A stretch of DNA of 64,000 nucleotides from contig CAWKNZ010000010.1 of assembly GCA_963851265.1 (NCBI GenBank), forward strand, positions 128,001-192,000, in the 5' to 3' direction. Within the stretch, counting starts at the first letter, position 1. Each line of letters begins with the position of its first letter. Below are positions 19,001 through 28,000 of this stretch, in pieces. Position numbers: made by a program. The stretch comes from an uncultured Gemmatimonadales bacterium (GTDB taxonomy: Bacteria > Gemmatimonadota > Gemmatimonadetes > Gemmatimonadales > Gemmatimonadaceae).

Positions 19001-22000
19001 GCGCGACTTCTCGCAGATCCGTCTGATCCAGGTGATTCAGGGGACGGCGGTGGTCACGCTGGCGCTCAACGTCGTCGCGCTCTGGAAGCAGGAGCCGCGG
19101 CGACCGATGACGCGCGCGCAGGCGGCGGCGGTGCCGCGGCCGCCGTTCCGGGCGCGGTGGCGGGCGTTCGTCGGCGCGGGGCGTGCGGCGCGGCTGCTCG
19201 CCGCGGTCGGGTTGGGCACGTTCGCCTTCAACCTGCAGGACGTGCTGCTCGAGCCGTACGGCGGCGAGGTCCTGCACCTGTCGGTCGCGGGAACCACCGC
19301 GCTCACGGCGCTGTTTGCCGCGGGCATGATCGCGGCGTTCGGCGTGAGCGCGCGCGCGCTCGAACGGGGCCGCGACCCGATCCGCGTCGCCGCCGCCGGC
19401 ATCGGGTGCGGGATGCTCGGGTTCGTGGCCGTGATCTTCGCCTCGCCACTCGCGGACGTGACGCTGTTCCGCATCGGAAGCGCGCTGATCGGCTTCGGCG
19501 AAGGGTGCTTCGCGGTCGGCACGCTGACGAGCGCGATGGGCCTGCGCACCACGTGCGACGAGCACGGCATCGCGCTCGGCGCGTGGGGTGCGGTGTTCGC
19601 GACGAGCGAGGGCGCGGCGCTCGCGCTCAGCGGCGTGGTCAAGGACGCGATCGCGGCGCTCGTGCGCGGCGGCGTGCTCACGGGCGGGATGGCCGCCCCT
19701 AGCGTGCCGTACAGCGTCGTGTACCACGCCGAGGTCGGGTTGCTGTTCGCGACGCTGGTCGCGCTCGGGCCGCTCGTCGCTCGGCGGGGCGCGCTCCGGC
19801 CCGCGGCGGCCGCCTCCGCCGGCCCGCGCCCGCGCTTCGGCCTCGCCGAGCTGCCCGGCAGTTAGGCACTTCCCCTTCGGCGCTCCGCCGTCCCCTTCCC
19901 CACTCGGAGGCTCGTCCCCATGCACTTCGCACGCTCGATCGACGTCGCCCAGGTCGCGATCTACGCGTTCTGGCTCTTCTTCGCCGGCCTCGTCTACTAC
20001 CTGCGCCGCGAGGACAAGCGCGAGGGGTACCCGATGGTCTCGGACGGGCCGGGGGGCGTGATCCAGGGGTACCCGCGCACGCCGGGACCGAAGCGCTTCA
20101 TCCACCGGCCGCTCCACGCCGACGTGCCCTTCGGCAGCTCGGCCGCCACCCCGGCGTCCGTCGCCGCGACGTCCAGCGCGCCGCCGCCCCCGGCCGACTA
20201 CCCCGCCGCGCCGCCCACCGCCTAACGTACCCGCCACCGGAGCCCCGCCATGGCCACCGCCGCCAACCCCGTCACCTACGCCCCCGCGCTCGCCCAGCCC
20301 GGCGCGCCGCTGCAACCCGAGGGCGACCCGATGCTGAGCGGCCTCGGGCCGTCCGCGTGGGCCAACCGCGCCGACGTGCCCGACACGACCGTGCACGGCG
20401 ACCCGAAGATCGTCCCGATGCGCGCCGCGCCCAACTTCTACATCGAGCCGCGCGACCCCGACCCGCGCGGGATGCGCATGCTCGGCTGCGACGACGAGGT
20501 CGCGGGGATCATCGCGGACGTGTGGGTCGACCGCGCGGAGCCGACGGTGCGGTACTTCGAGGTCGAACTGCCGGCCGGCACCGCGGCCGCCGAGGGGGGG
20601 CGAGGGCGCCGCGTGCTGATTCCGTCGACCGTGTGCAAGATCGACCGTCGGCGTGCCGTGGTCCGTACGAAGTCGATCCTGGCGCACCAGTTCGCCAACG
20701 TGCCGGGCACGCGCGCGCCGGACCGCGTGACGTTCCTCGAAGAGGACAAGATCATGGCGTACTACGCGGGCGGCTATCTGTACGCCACGCGGTCACGGTC
20801 GGAGCCGATCCTGTGACCACGGCGCGCCTCGACTCGGCGCGCGAGAAGGCGGCGCGCGCGGACGCGGTGCGCGTCGACGCCCAGGGCCGCGCGTGGCTGC
20901 CCGGGTTCGGGGAGCCGCTGCCCGCCGGCGAGCGCGTGCTCTGGGCCGGGCGACCCGACGCCGCGGCACTCGCGCGCCGTGCGCTCCACGTGCGCGGGCT
21001 CGCCGTCTACTTCGCGCTCCTCACGGCGCTCACGTTCTCGGTGCGCTGGCGGATGGCCGGCACGCCGGTGGCCGTGGTCGACGCGCTGACCGTGGCGGCG
21101 ATGGGCGCGGCGGTGCTCGTCTTCGCGCGCGTGTACGCGACCGTGGTCGCACGCGCGACGCTCTACGCGGTGACCGACCGTCGCGTGGTCCTGCGCGTCG
21201 GCGTGGCGGTGCCGGCGGTGCTCAACATCCCGCTCGACCGCGTCACGTCGGTCGACCTGCGGCGCGGGCGCGACGGGGCCGGCGACGTGGAGGTCACACT
21301 CGGCGGCGACGCGCGCATCGCCTACCTGCTGCTCTGGCCGCACGCGCGGCCCTGGCACATCACCCGCACGCGGCCCACGTTCCGCGGCCTGCGCGACGCG
21401 GGAGCCGCGGGAATGGCGCTGGCCGACGTGGTGCGGGCCGCTCAGTCCGCACGTGAGGAGTCGAGCGTCGCGCCGCCCGCGGTGGACGCCGCGGCGACGC
21501 AGCCGGAGCCCACACGCCGCGTGAAGGCCGCGTGAGCGGGGGGGTGGCGGTGCGGATCGCAGGAGGACCGGCGGGCGGCGGACGCAGCGGGCGCGACGGA
21601 CAGTCGGGCGGCCGCGGCCTCGACGACCTCCCGCGCGAGGCGGGCGGACCGTCGCCCCCGCGCCCCGTGTTGATCGCAGCGGGCGTGCTGGCAGTCGCGA
21701 CCATCATCGGCGCCGGGGTGGCGCGACGGACCGGGGCGGGGCACGTCGAGCCACCGCGCTCGTCGGTCGCCGCCTCGCGCGATCTGTGGTTCGATGACGC
21801 GCCGGGGGGCGTGGTCATCGTGCGCACGCACACGGCCGCCGGCGTCGACTCGACGGTGGCGACGCTGCACTCGGGCGAGGGGATGTTCGTGCGCGGCACG
21901 CTTCGGGCGCTGGCCCGCGGCCGGCGACTCGGCGCGTCGGCGACCGACGCCGATGCGGCGACGGCCGTGTCGCATGCGCCGTTCCGCCTCACGCGCTACG

Positions 22001-25000: not shown

Positions 25001-28000
25001 TCTGCTCGATCTCGCGCTCGCCGCCCAGGCGGCTCACGGCCAGGATGGTGGCACCGTGCATCGCGAAGAGCAGCGTCGACCCGTAGAGGAAGACGATGCT
25101 CAGCATGTGGAACGGGTTGTAGAACAGGTTCCCGTAGCGCAGGCTGAACGCGGCCGTCCAGTCGAGGTGCGGCAGGATGCCGAACGGCACCGCCTCGCCC
25201 CAGCTTCCCATCAGCAGCGGCCGGATGAAGCCGAGCGACAGGTAGAGGAAGATCGCCGAGGCGAACGCCCAGGGCAGGTGCGTGCCCAGCCCCAGCGCGC
25301 GCACGCGGCGGTAGGTGCGCACCCACCAGAGGATGATGCTCGTGGTGAGGAAGAACCCCGCCATGAGCCACCACCCGCCCTGGTTGAGCGGCGGGATGTG
25401 CAGCCCGTAGGCGGGCGGCGGCGGCTCGAGCGCGAGCCACGGGAGGCGTCGCACGAACTGGATCGGGTTCCAGTTCACCGACGCGAACATGTTGAGCCCG
25501 ATGATCTCGAAGGCCGCGAAGCCGAAGATCAGCGACGCGACGCCGGTCGCGCCCAGGTAGATGGGGCCGACCTGCGCGTCGCCGAGCTTGCCGAGCCAGT
25601 ACGAGAATCCCGGGGCGCCCTGGCGCACCCACGTGCGCTGCTCGATGGGCACGCCCCAGTCGGGGGCGGTGCGCACCTGCACGCTCGTGAACAGGTTCTG
25701 GTACTCGAGCCGCGGCAGGAATGCCGTGAGCGGGTCGAGCGGTTCGGGGGCCGCCGCCGGCGGCGCGCCGGCGGGCGTCGGCTGTGTGATGGTTGCCATG
25801 GCCGCTTCCTCAGCGCCAGATCGGGAGGTTGAGCCACCAGTCCCACCACTCCGGCCAGCCCTTGGTCCAGAGCGGCCCGCTCACCACGATGCAGAGGGCC
25901 GAGAAGATCCCGGCGCCTAACGCAAGGGCGAGTCCGAGGCGGTGGATGCCGACCGCGCCGATCGAGTAGCCGAGCACGTCGCGGAAGAAGGTGTTCTCGT
26001 GCTCGCTCGTCTTCACCGGCTCCCCCTTCTTGGGGTTCACCACGGAGAGGATGAGCGACCCGTGCATGGAGAGCGCGAGCGTCGTCGTGAAGAACAACGT
26101 CACCGCGATCATGTGCAACGGGTTGTAATGGAAGTGCAGGTACTGGTACCCGACGTTGCTCACCCAGTCGAGGTGGCTCAGGATGCCGTAGGGGAAGCCG
26201 TGTCCCCACGCGCCGAGCCAGACGGGGCGGATGACGACGAGCGTGACGTAGGCGAACACGGCCACGCCGTACGCCCAGGGGATGTGCATCCCCATGCCCA
26301 GCTTGCGCGAGATCTCGGCCTGCCGGAACGCCCAGCTCACGAACGCGCCGATCGCGGCGATCGTGATGAGCTGCCAGAGGCCGCCCTCACGGAGGGGGGC
26401 GAGGCCCAGTCCGTACTTGAGGTCGGGCGGGGCGATGTTGATCTGCCACAGGTCCCAGGTGCCGCCGATGGCCGCGCCCCAGACACAGAGCAGCGTCCCG
26501 ACGACGGCGAAGAAAATGGTGGTGACGCCGAAGAAGCCCACGTAGAACGGTCCGACCCAGAAATCGAACAGGTCGCCGCCGATCAGCGTGCCGCCCCGGA
26601 CGCGGTACTTGGCCTCGTAACTCAGCATGGCCATGTCGCAGGCCCTCCGCGTGGTGAACGAACGGGAAAAGAACGAAACGTGCTAGGGAGCGCGGGGCGG
26701 GGGGCCGCCCGGGGGGAGCACGCCGATGGGCGCGCCCCCCCCGCGGGGCTCATCGGCCGCCGGGCAGCGGCGAGATTTCCGCGGCCGACGCCCGGGCGTT
26801 GGCGTCGAGCCAGTTGTACCGGTTGGTGCTCAGGAGGATGAAGTGAATCACCAGCGCGAGCACGAACAGGAACGTGAACAGCGCGATGAGCGTGCGCCGC
26901 GGGTCGAAAAGCATCCAGACGCGATGCATGGCGGGCTCCTAACGCGAAGTGGGAGAGACGGCCGCGACGCGGAGCGCGGCCGAGAGTGCCGATGGGGCCT
27001 TGGCCGCCGGCGCGATCTGCGCGGTGCGCGTGGGGTACCCGTTCGCGCCGGGGATCCACGGGCGCCACTGCCAGACGAGGATGTGGGCGACGATGGCGAT
27101 CGCGAGGAAGCCGAGGAAGCTCATCGTGAACGCCGTGTGGAACCCGCGCGCTTCATCCTCGTTCAGCCCCGACGTGGGGGTGGACGGGCGCGCGGTCAGG
27201 TCGCCGTACCCGCCGCCGTAGGGCGGTTGGGACGTGGCGGTCGACTGCATTCCGATCGGGGCGGTCATAACAACCTCCGGGGTGTGGAGAGCGCCGCCGC
27301 CCGGCCGTGGCCGGCCGTCGACGGCGTGGTGAGCGACGCCGCGCGCGTGCACGTCACGCGCGGGCGCCGCGGGGACGGCGCGCCGGGACCGGCGCGCCTA
27401 ACATGTAGCCCAACATAGTGTCCGACACATCGCCTAACACGGGGCCCGACTGGGCCGAGTGGCGCGGCCGCTGGCCCAACGCGGCCGCCAGCCGCTTCGT
27501 CCGCGCCGCCGGCTACACCTGGCACGTCCAGGTCGCCGGCGCCGGCCCGCCCCTGCTCCTCCTGCACGGCGCGGGCGGCGGCACGCACAGCTGGCTCCGC
27601 GTGCTGCCGCGCCTCGCGACGCGTTACACCGTCGTCGCCTGCGACCTGCCGGGGCACGCGTTCACCGACGCGCCGCCGGCCGACCGCCTCACGCTGCCCG
27701 GCATGGCGGCCGACGTCGCCGCGCTCCTCGCCACGCTCGGCCTGCGCCCGCGGCTCGCCGCGGGTCACTCGGCCGGCGCGGCCGTGCTGCTCCGCATGGC
27801 GCTCGACGGCGCCCTGCCCGACGCGCGCGCGCTCGTCGGCATCAACGCCGCGATCGTCCCGCCGCCCGACGTCTACCGCCTGCTCGGCGGGTCGTGGCTG
27901 CGCGGCGCGTTCACGGGGCTGTTCACCGGCCCGCTCGTCACCCGCCTCACCACGCGCTACGCCGCGCGCGCCGGCGCCGTCGAGGCGCTGCTGCGCTCCA

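Follow-up and report, generated by a model that had tools for sequence, protein, structure and literature searches.

Which came first in the photosystem of the Gemmatimonadota, the division of the reaction-centre H subunit between two genes or the second antenna ring, and can a locus with the one and not the other preserve the stage between them? The double-ring complex, RC-dLH, has been solved from Gemmatimonas phototrophica (PDB 7O0U-X, PMC8849296) and G. groenlandica (PDB 9H19/9H22, PMC12817894), and comprises concentric rings of 16 and 24 subunits and the extrinsic polypeptides RC-S and RC-U. The importance paragraph of PMC12817894 treats the double ring as the mark of phototrophic Gemmatimonadota, for which that paper draws on the two solved species and a third genome, and the puhA split and pufA2, the gene for the second antenna alpha chain, are both put shortly after transfer, with no order between them. 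The locus analysed here lies in a 64,000-nucleotide stretch of DNA (the window) from an uncultured Gemmatimonadales bacterium (GCA_963851265.1, CAWKNZ010000010.1 positions 128,001-192,000, forward strand), whose genome is in 12 contigs and 94% complete. In window coordinates, the photosynthesis cluster is intact, with a pufB-pufA-pufL-pufM-pufC operon holding one LH alpha gene together with split puhA1/puhA2:

144..6688, minus strand: ppsR, bchG, bchP, hemA and hemF; left end of the cluster
7528..16887, plus strand: bchN, bchB, bchH, bchL and bchM; converging pigment-synthesis arm
17246..18394, plus strand: acsF (TIGR02029), directly upstream of lhaA (subtype II order); start codon read from the sequence
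18402..19865, plus strand: lhaA, LH1 assembly factor (PF03209)
19920..20225, plus strand: puhA1, membrane half (Ht) of the split H subunit (PRCH 3-92; TIGR01150 4-73)
20250..20816, plus strand: puhA2, cytoplasmic half (Hc), 188 aa (PRCH 81-133 and PRC barrel; TIGR01150 86-261)
20813..21535, plus strand: puhB, photosystem assembly factor (NF040894, above cut-off)
21532..22125, plus strand: puhC, photosystem assembly factor (TIGR03054, above cut-off)
22141..22695, plus strand: tspO (PF03073), within the variable puh-puf gap
23065..24342, minus strand: pufC, tetraheme reaction-centre cytochrome (PF02276, NF040706, four CxxCH)
24339..25799, minus strand: pufM, 486 aa (TIGR01115)
25810..26634, minus strand: pufL, reaction-centre L subunit (TIGR01157), conserved His motifs present
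26750..26929, minus strand: pufA, sole LH alpha, 59 aa, LH1 type (His29, Trp40; NF040861)
26939..27268, minus strand: pufB, sole LH beta (NF040862), 38 aa after WRPW
27418..28332, plus strand: bchO, inverted, between bchZ and pufB (TIGR03056)
28356..34901, minus strand: crtF-like methyltransferase, bchC, bchX, bchY and bchZ; upstream arm of the puf superoperon
34990..38936, plus strand: bchI, bchD, puhE-like gene; right-hand end of the cluster, with the scores of bchD and puhE under their cut-offs

These boundaries, with 9 nt between pufB and pufA and 115 nt between pufA and pufL, confirm those given in the genome-wide survey's note on this DNA. Profile searches recovered the pigment genes bchN, B, H, L, M, I, D, C, X, Y, Z, G and P along with acsF, in a converging superoperon order; neither of the two ORFs examined upstream of bchN could be recognised as bchF. 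The GC3 of the cluster (0.90-0.97) is equal to the host's (0.97). The pufC product ends in a long, low-complexity C-tail, and PufM carries the Gemmatimonadota C-terminal extension, its tail being 156 aa long, where the 11 proteobacterial loci listed have 21-29; a domain search of PufM gave no match to an OmpA domain.

The two puhA genes match non-overlapping halves of the PuhA model and both carry Pfam PRCH, bearing out the note's statement that the genome keeps the split. PuhA1, of 101 aa with a Pro/Ala tail, matches the Ht chains 9h22_H, 9h19_H and 7o0u_H1. The halves here share one frame, with a stop and 24 nt between them; a sequencing error as the origin of the division is ruled out, because the split lies at the same site in all 33 Gemmatimonadota puh loci seen (23 without and 10 with pufA2) while gaps and frames vary. 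In proteobacteria puhA is unsplit in nine of the nine loci with the whole gene in view.

In the antenna search of the genome, Pfam LHC gave two matches above cut-off, pufA and pufB, just as the note had reported. As a test of absence this model is weak, many pufA2 genomes giving just two matches, and it was dropped as too blunt for PufA2; because it often misses that chain, a PufA2 profile with controls was built in its place. Custom profiles for PufA1, PufA2, PufB and LH2 were run on the genome's six-frame ORFs, 59,387 in all, where only pufA and pufB score and no pucBA (LH2) genes were found, at 94% completeness. Trained without genus g51, the PufA2 profile recovers 8/8 g51 PufA2 at E<=3e-18; a full-length PufA2 was found in four of four controls and in G382 (E<=1e-22), and nowhere in any of the 40 genomes whose puf operon has no pufA2. 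The class so defined is LHh-alpha, the copy in G184 being identical to 7o0u_AA. In the PDB, both LH chains match purple-bacterial RC-LH1 best (e.g. 9M8M, 7XXF, 6Z5S); for PufA the top matches are proteobacterial LH1 alpha chains, with LHh-alpha reached only at E 8e-4. The profile searches thus agree, within a 94% complete genome, with the claim of one LH alpha and no further LH alpha or beta gene, and since there is no pufA2 there would be no LHh ring, which supports the earlier statement that the outer ring cannot be built. Judged by its genes, this organism very probably builds a single ring. Further antenna genes do occur among relatives. As the note described, an OmpA-fused second alpha is found in the genus, here in three congeners and at a distance from the cluster, in a slot that is assembled and empty in the present genome, and genus g11 has a further LH pair; three f7 genomes have such a pair too.

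Across the sampled family genomes PufL/M is present in 63 of 401, and 75 Gemmatimonadota puf loci comprise 34 with a single alpha, 39 with pufA2 and 2 that are truncated; the fetched set leaves aside the broken puf contigs of the family genomes G010, G112, G312, G341, G382 and G396, and likewise G818, G839 and G1091. Trees were built from representatives (38-58 of 146 PufL rows), and PufLMC trees were rooted on proteobacteria, with UFBoot/SH-aLRT values taken from the 38-row LG+G4 tree. There the phylum (100/100), an outer single-alpha clade (96/96), the pufA2 clade (100/100) and the clade of the window's locus (100/100) are all recovered, the last as sister to g11 plus pufA2 (100/99) and on no long branch; LG+C20 gives the same backbone. 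The pufA2 loci form one clade nested among single-alpha lineages, so that the note's PufL-based claim of one such clade with single-alpha loci outside it is reproduced with more genes. AU tests reject monophyly of the single-alpha loci (p=0.002), a single clade of the family f1 modules (p=2e-12) and a union of the window's clade with g51/g54 (p=3e-150). Support for the pufA2 clade could be raised artificially by a change of function along its stem. Since the single-alpha loci are paraphyletic around one derived pufA2 clade, the puhA split very likely preceded the pufA2 duplication at the level of the puf and puh genes. Trees of PufA2 or PufB alone (~50 columns) were too short for ordering events, and a FastTree tree of BchXYZ alone, in which the phylum fell apart, played no part in the rooting.

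The LH1 tail characters and the position of acsF are in line with the PufLMC order. The ENGT insertion in PufA1 is present in 39/39 pufA2 loci, in 0/35 single-alpha and in 0/67 proteobacterial ones, and the window's PufA is without it. Its PufB retains the proteobacterial C-terminal tail, the PxxxGY motif of which occurs in 10/10 loci of its clade, 40/57 proteobacterial loci and 0/39 pufA2 loci; loss of this tail is homoplastic, extending to 11/14 outer single-alpha and 16/57 proteobacterial loci. The acsF gene follows puhC in eight outer loci, as in betaproteobacterial ones, and precedes lhaA in the window's clade, g11 and the pufA2 loci.

The explanation that we favour overall, as a probable one, is a core-only photosystem with a stepwise history of its module. 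The organism would possess a working aerobic anoxygenic photosystem with neither LHh ring nor LH2. Its reaction centre would be of type 2, composed of L, M, the tetraheme C and H as Ht plus Hc, and would be surrounded by LH1. We infer that LH1, built of the single pufB/pufA pair, is the only ring and that it is probably closed, with about 16 subunits. Light absorbed by LH1 would pass straight to the reaction centre and on into cyclic electron flow, quinol would cross just one ring, and the photosystem is presumably expressed. We take it to have a single near-infrared band at ~865-880 nm, after RC-LH1 core complexes. Historically, the module would have been transferred from a proteobacterium, with the puhA split and the PufM C-terminal extension arising on the phylum stem; acsF would then have shifted ahead of lhaA in the ancestor of the window's clade, g11 and the pufA2 clade; pufA2 would have arisen once, together with a PufA1 tail insertion of ~10 residues and loss of the PufB tail; and the pufA2 block would afterwards have passed from one host lineage to another on at least one occasion (family f2). 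The window's module would fall between the second and third of these steps, which suggests that the locus keeps a stage before its relatives' second ring. The host lineage most likely inherited this single-ring module vertically, and it is likely, if somewhat less surely than the order of events in the genes, that it was never double-ringed.

It is for the hosts that the survey note's two central claims have to be narrowed. The split coming first and pufA2 later, in one lineage, stands for the gene module and not for the organisms: pufA2 hosts fall in two families, sister genomes of genus g117 have opposite layouts in the host tree (G573 with pufA2, G564 with a single alpha), and bch trees disagree. 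Likewise, the description "marking the state before" has been demonstrated for the puf-puh module, and for the organism it is only likely, because the block moves between hosts, as the mixed layouts of g117 and the different tree given by the pigment genes indicate. Double-ring ancestors might have exchanged their puf-puh block for one of an older, single-ring kind from another Gemmatimonadota lineage (g67/g74-like), in which case the module would still be primitive and the split-then-duplication order kept, the organism itself being a secondary single-ring form. We consider this unlikely, yet it is the strongest competitor. In the best host tree the window's genus groups with g11 and g51/g54 inside the pufA2 hosts (SH-aLRT 99; four label changes), and g1/g32/g40 are nested there, but the nesting is not significant, since the AU test does not reject host monophyly of the f1 pufA2 genera (p=0.41; G199 was left out for low coverage, and g74 and g64 yielded no rpoB). 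In the tree of ten bch genes g1/g40 form a polytomy with pufA2 groups, nearer to them than to g67/g74 (100), whereas the structural genes join g1/g40 to g67/g74 (99). The bch genes also nest g11 inside pufA2 groups at 100, and with them monophyly of pufA2 is rejected (p=0.003 under LG+G4, composition being flagged in 12 rows). A seven-gene puf and bch concatenation, which also places g11 within the pufA2 clade, was not relied on, given the conflict between its two sets of genes. Genus g11, on a long structural-gene branch, probably reflects loss or replacement of a double-ring block, or a block moved several times. Against replacement in the present lineage, for all that swapping is shown in g117, the deep branching of the single-alpha modules parallels that of the host families (f7, f8, f2, f1), as vertical descent predicts, and three or four separate single-ring replacements would be required.

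Loss in place, with pufA2 ancestral in Gemmatimonadales and deleted here while trees misplace drifting reaction-centre genes, is improbable and already largely refuted. Deleting pufA2 and its spacer would leave an identical tight pufB-pufA junction, and g11 resembles a loss in bch trees and its long structural branch; but AU tests reject the nestings tried, the window's clade is not long-branched, its PufA is without the insertion of all 39 pufA2 loci, and the ancestral PufB tail would need regaining. A hidden outer or peripheral antenna (pufA2 in the unassembled 6%, an unrecognised alpha, or one alpha building both rings) is more improbable still, for although completeness stops at 94% and the congeners' OmpA-fused alphas and the further LH pairs of g11 and f7 show that such genes can lie elsewhere, pufA2 lies between pufB and pufA1 in 39/39 fetched loci having it, a junction of 9 nt here, 0/40 genomes have it elsewhere, the OmpA-fusion slot is empty, and neither of the two solved double rings does without a distinct alpha (PMC8849296, PMC12817894).

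The favoured stepwise history can be extended into a ladder, which taken as a whole we regard as doubtful. The phylum's living genomes would then keep an entire series of antenna evolution, from a single ring with split H (f7, f8 and the window's clade) through an added, imported LH2 (g11) to the double ring, with the window on the rung just below the last. As parts of the same doubtful whole, the pufA2 puf-puh cassette would spread between hosts while pigment genes stay put; a second pufB-pufA2 pair in g62/g64, its alpha with an extra conserved His, would, as a further step, make a third ring or second outer antenna; and photosystems would be tied to the cell wall by OmpA-like domains, taken up on three occasions (by LH1-alpha in the window's genus, by PufM and by PufC).

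Compared with the Gemmatimonas RC-dLH, the present system has H split at the same position, a tetraheme PufC, the PufM extension, converging superoperons, inverted bchO, acsF before lhaA and a PufA ending SPLPxGR, and its PufL is 82-84% identical to that of genus g51. It differs in having no pufA2 and hence, by gene content, no 24-subunit LHh ring, in a PufA of 59 aa versus 71, without ENGT, and in a single PufB with a 38-residue tail, where the 44-aa Gemmatimonas beta, common to both rings, stops after WRPW. It is also without the non-photosynthetic insert between pufC and puhC, to which the conserved ORFs there in pufA2 loci belong; inspection of the ORFs between pufC and puhC, made with no query sequence, gave no candidate for RC-S or RC-U, which PMC11406998 does not mention. 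Purple-bacterial core-only RC-LH1 (pufBALMC) shares one alpha and one beta, alpha His29/Trp40, the beta PxxxGY tail and the absence of pucBA (in a 94% complete genome), and by this analogy the complex should work likewise; its H is a single chain, whereas the present one is in two genes, with long PufM and PufC tails and a Gemmatimonadota host. In the parts of PMC9426454 considered here, subtype II has acsF upstream of and adjoining lhaA, as in the window, and SG8-23/UBA6960 (Longimicrobiales) are subtype I; alpha-gene number and the puhA split are not discussed in those parts. Judged by the f7 and f8 loci, subtype I has a single alpha and split puhA (we infer that family f7 is UBA6960), but acsF follows puhC there, and in the tree these clusters stand one branching more distant from the double-ring clade. 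Concentric rings can also arise in other ways, as the reported LH1-LH2 double ring of Halorhodospira halophila (PMC11802735) illustrates; that ring needs LH2 polypeptides, which the present genome lacks.

A single ring is ordinary purple-bacterial architecture, and the value of the locus lies in the order of events and the comparison it opens. As pufA2 is missing from 34 of the 75 sampled puf loci, nearly half, and the split is older and phylum-wide, pufM surveys cannot assume a single antenna size across the phylum. Now that the single-ring lineages closest to the double ring have been identified, the steps building the second ring can be ordered and tested, above all which changes allow a 24-subunit ring to dock on LH1; pufA2, the PufA1 tail insertion and the shortened PufB are the three candidates.

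In the source genome (4.6 Mb, 73% GC, 94.4% complete, 12 contigs), one photosynthesis gene cluster fills the first 39 kb of the window (C10:128001-192000), with all five puf genes passing their NCBIfam cut-offs and bchF not identified among the two ORFs tried. Its parts and surrounding features, in window coordinates, are:

Left part of cluster: hemF-hemA-bchP-bchG-ppsR, then bchN-B-H-L-M
Middle of cluster: acsF-lhaA-puhA1-puhA2-puhB-puhC-tspO
Converging arm: crtF-bchC-X-Y-Z, inverted bchO, pufB-A-L-M-C; bchI-D beyond
23065-23430 (-): PufC tail, periplasmic, Pro/Ala/Gln-rich, 134 aa
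24339-24810 (-): PufM tail, periplasmic, Pro/Ala/Gln-rich, 156 aa
38974-48632 (-): operon for PQQ dehydrogenase, cytochrome c and caa3-type oxidase (coxB, coxA, ctaG), adjoining the cluster
58600-59691 (+): IS481-family transposase, scoring slightly below cut-off

Across the phylum the opening 35-40 residues of the PufM tail are conserved; the proteobacterial loci compared lack them. The oxidase operon may act as an electron partner for the photosystem.

The gaps of 9 nt between pufB and pufA and of 115 nt between pufA and pufL were confirmed and leave no space for a second alpha in the operon. With Pfam LHC, pufA and pufB alone exceed the cut-off in the genome; that model misses PufA2 in many pufA2-bearing genomes, and we built our own profiles from fetched loci. 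Across 59,387 six-frame ORFs the PufA1, PufA2, PufB and two LH2-chain profiles again match only these two genes, bearing out the claim of the genome-wide survey's note that no other LH gene is present. The PufA2 class is anchored by the second alpha of one relative (G184), identical to the LHh-alpha of the double-ring Gemmatimonas photosystem (RC-dLH, PDB 7O0U), and a PufA2 profile built without genus g51 recovers 8/8 g51 copies (E<=3e-18). None of the 40 whole genomes with no pufA2 visible in the puf operon yielded a full-length PufA2 match (puf contigs being fragmentary in G010, G321 and G341), nor did four more whose puf contigs are broken yield any, in a search whose alignment positives were 4/4 controls plus G382 (E<=1e-22).

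PufL/M are present in 63/401 family genomes, 21/401 of a phylum draw, 7/301 of family f2 and 12/301 of another order. Among 75 fetched puf loci the layouts are B-A (34), B-A2-A1 (32), B-A2-B-A2-A1 (7) and cut by a contig end (2), the single-alpha ones falling to the window's own clade (genera g1, g32, g40, g67 and g74; 10), genus g11 (11), families f7 (8) and f8 (3) and part of f2 (2); a named Longimicrobiaceae locus has the layout B-A. Databases label close homologues of one congener's protein Gemmatirosa sp. The puhA split noted earlier recurs at the same place in all 33 loci that show the puh operon (10 carry pufA2, 23 do not), both halves are separate ORFs in 42 genomes of an enlarged set, and puhA is unsplit in 9/9 proteobacterial loci showing the full gene. 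On the PuhA model the window's puhA1 aligns to positions 4-73 and its puhA2 to 86-261, the former also matching the Ht chains (membrane half of the H subunit) of both solved Gemmatimonas complexes; the window's alpha and beta are nearer to proteobacterial LH1 chains than to Gemmatimonas ones.

On a PufL+M+C tree (38 rows, LG+G4, proteobacterial outgroups) Gemmatimonadota form one clade (100/100), from which single-alpha f7, f8 and f2 loci split first (96/96). The own clade (100/100) joins g11 and the pufA2 clade at 100/99, with g11 beside pufA2 (96/95), and the pufA2 loci are one clade (100/100), as the note had held; the backbone is unchanged under LG+C20 (58 and 38 rows; SH-aLRT only), and puh genes on their own give the pufA2 clade at 1.0. 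The single-alpha loci do lie around this clade: their monophyly is rejected (AU, p=0.002), so that pufA2 is nested, and one gain suffices in place of a gain plus three losses. Other groupings rejected were all family-f1 modules as one clade (AU, p=2e-12) and, on seven structural genes, g1, g40 and g11 with g51/g54 (AU, p=3e-150) and the pairing of g51/g54 with just g11 (p=6e-5).

Features outside the tree alignments agree with this order. An ENGT-type insertion in the PufA1 tail occurs in 39/39 pufA2, 0/35 single-alpha and 0/67 proteobacterial loci; the proteobacterial PufB tail motif is kept in 40/57 proteobacterial, 10/10 own-clade and 0/39 pufA2 loci, only its retention being informative because tail loss recurs elsewhere; and acsF follows puhC in betaproteobacterial and eight outer loci, and stands ahead of lhaA in g11, the own clade and the pufA2 clade, arrangements corresponding to subtypes I and II in the consulted part of PMC9426454. 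Judged from sequence, the window's clade, with g11, stands closest to the double ring among the single-ring lineages. In betaproteobacterial loci (L094, L098, L100 and others) pufB is short, and the small ORF separating it from pufA finishes with a PufB-tail-like motif, as though the tail had split off into its own gene.

The host tree (RpoB, RpoC, NusG and four ribosomal proteins; 41 rows, 3,747 columns) requires four changes of the pufA2 label, and in genus g117 (three genomes without pufA2, two with) the sister genomes G573 and G564 carry pufA2 and a single alpha, respectively; the block has thus moved from one host lineage to another, the g117 sisters being a clear case of puf-puh exchange. 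Between g117 loci L123/L187 and L129 (family f2), photosystem blocks and acsF positions differ and bchXYZ genes are related. The proposal that the split came first and pufA2 later, in one lineage, stands for the structural module; for the hosts, "in one lineage" does not hold. Ten bch genes place g1/g40 in a polytomy with pufA2 groups and g11 nested among them at 100, and reject pufA2 monophyly (p=0.003, 12 rows being flagged for composition); the cluster's structural and pigment genes differ in history, which makes it a mosaic. That polytomy, and the host tree, which joins g1/g32/g40 and g11 to g51/g54 (SH-aLRT 99), would fit a host that once had a double-ring block, since replaced by a single-ring one, but host monophyly of the f1 pufA2 genera is not rejected (AU, p=0.41), and we consider such replacement the less likely course. 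It is simpler to suppose that the single ring was retained vertically, given that at depth the single-alpha modules track host families and that the cluster's GC3 matches the host.

The structure and function of purple-bacterial core complexes are well established, and judged by its gene set the window's system would work like a core-only RC-LH1; it falls outside the RC-dLH class. A single LH1 ring would pass energy to a reaction centre expected to carry a bound tetraheme cytochrome (PufC has four CxxCH motifs); this ring is probably a closed 16-mer, as the annotation shows no PufX-like gene between the overlapping pufM and pufC ORFs. Ht would anchor the complex and Hc, the cytoplasmic half, would cap the quinone side, as in 7O0U. 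With 32 versus 80 ring BChls, on subunit counts from the consulted part of PMC8849296, the antenna would be less than half that of the double ring.

Relatives carry further antenna genes and fusions:

L175, L177, L173, L176, L174 (g62); L171, L172 (G063, g64): five antenna genes, pufB-A-pufB-A2-A1, <=1.3 kb upstream of pufL (7 loci, 6 genomes)
L120:3542-4147 (-), also L121, L122: LH1-alpha fused to an OmpA-like wall-binding domain
L188:4938-6871 (+), also L189, L190: LH2-like pucB-pucA-pucC operon of g11
L141:12400-19000, L153:800-7600: pufC-puhC insert, by eye resembling a vWA plus kinase gene set

The distal pufB-A pair of the five-gene loci might form a third ring or else a second outer antenna; its PufA2-like alpha carries one more His, 11 residues N-terminal to the BChl His (7/7 copies vs 0/39 other PufA2), possibly a further pigment site. 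The alpha-OmpA fusion lies directly downstream of gyrB in 3/3 phototrophic congeners, with 12 such fusions among 116 database matches; since it retains His29 and Trp40, it may take a place in the LH1 ring and anchor that ring to peptidoglycan. In the source genome this slot is empty (C5:275806-275978) and its flanks are contiguous, so the fusion is truly missing there. In L188 the slot downstream of gyrB is taken by the puc operon, presumably LH2 by its motifs and its pucC neighbour. Scanning 285 proteins (Pfam agrees on 4/4 predicted; two negatives clean), we found an OmpA-like domain at the PufM end in 22 Gemmatimonadota loci (L130, L175, L123, L178 and 18 more; g11, g62, g64, pufA2-type f2, one g51, one g54) and on PufC in eight proteobacterial ones (L046, L051, L052, L057, L065, L068, L095, L110); a search of paper listings gave no report of either. 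A further LH pair occurs in f7 genomes G636, G1010 and G1027. The pufC-puhC insert is common to pufA2 genera g46, g51, g54, g59, g62 and g7, and the window is without it.

In the parts consulted, PMC8849296 states that the outer ring requires only pufA2 and arose after transfer, and PMC12817894 places pufA2 and the puhA split soon after transfer, before Gemmatimonas and Pseudogemmatithrix diverged, giving no order; these structure papers were the only ones searched that treat Gemmatimonadota with pufA2. Gene order and distribution are described in PMC9426454, PMC8547001, PMC10581226 and PMC12654162, in whose consulted text we found no alpha number. The text searched, mostly open-access and outside figures and supplements, whose cluster maps may already show one pufA, gave no report of single-alpha Gemmatimonadota; the finding is real, reproducible and apparently unreported. 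The window system is a variant of the Gemmatimonadota photosystem that puts two known innovations in order: its value lies in an absence and an ordering, with no new mechanism, and it opens the origin of the outer ring to testing.
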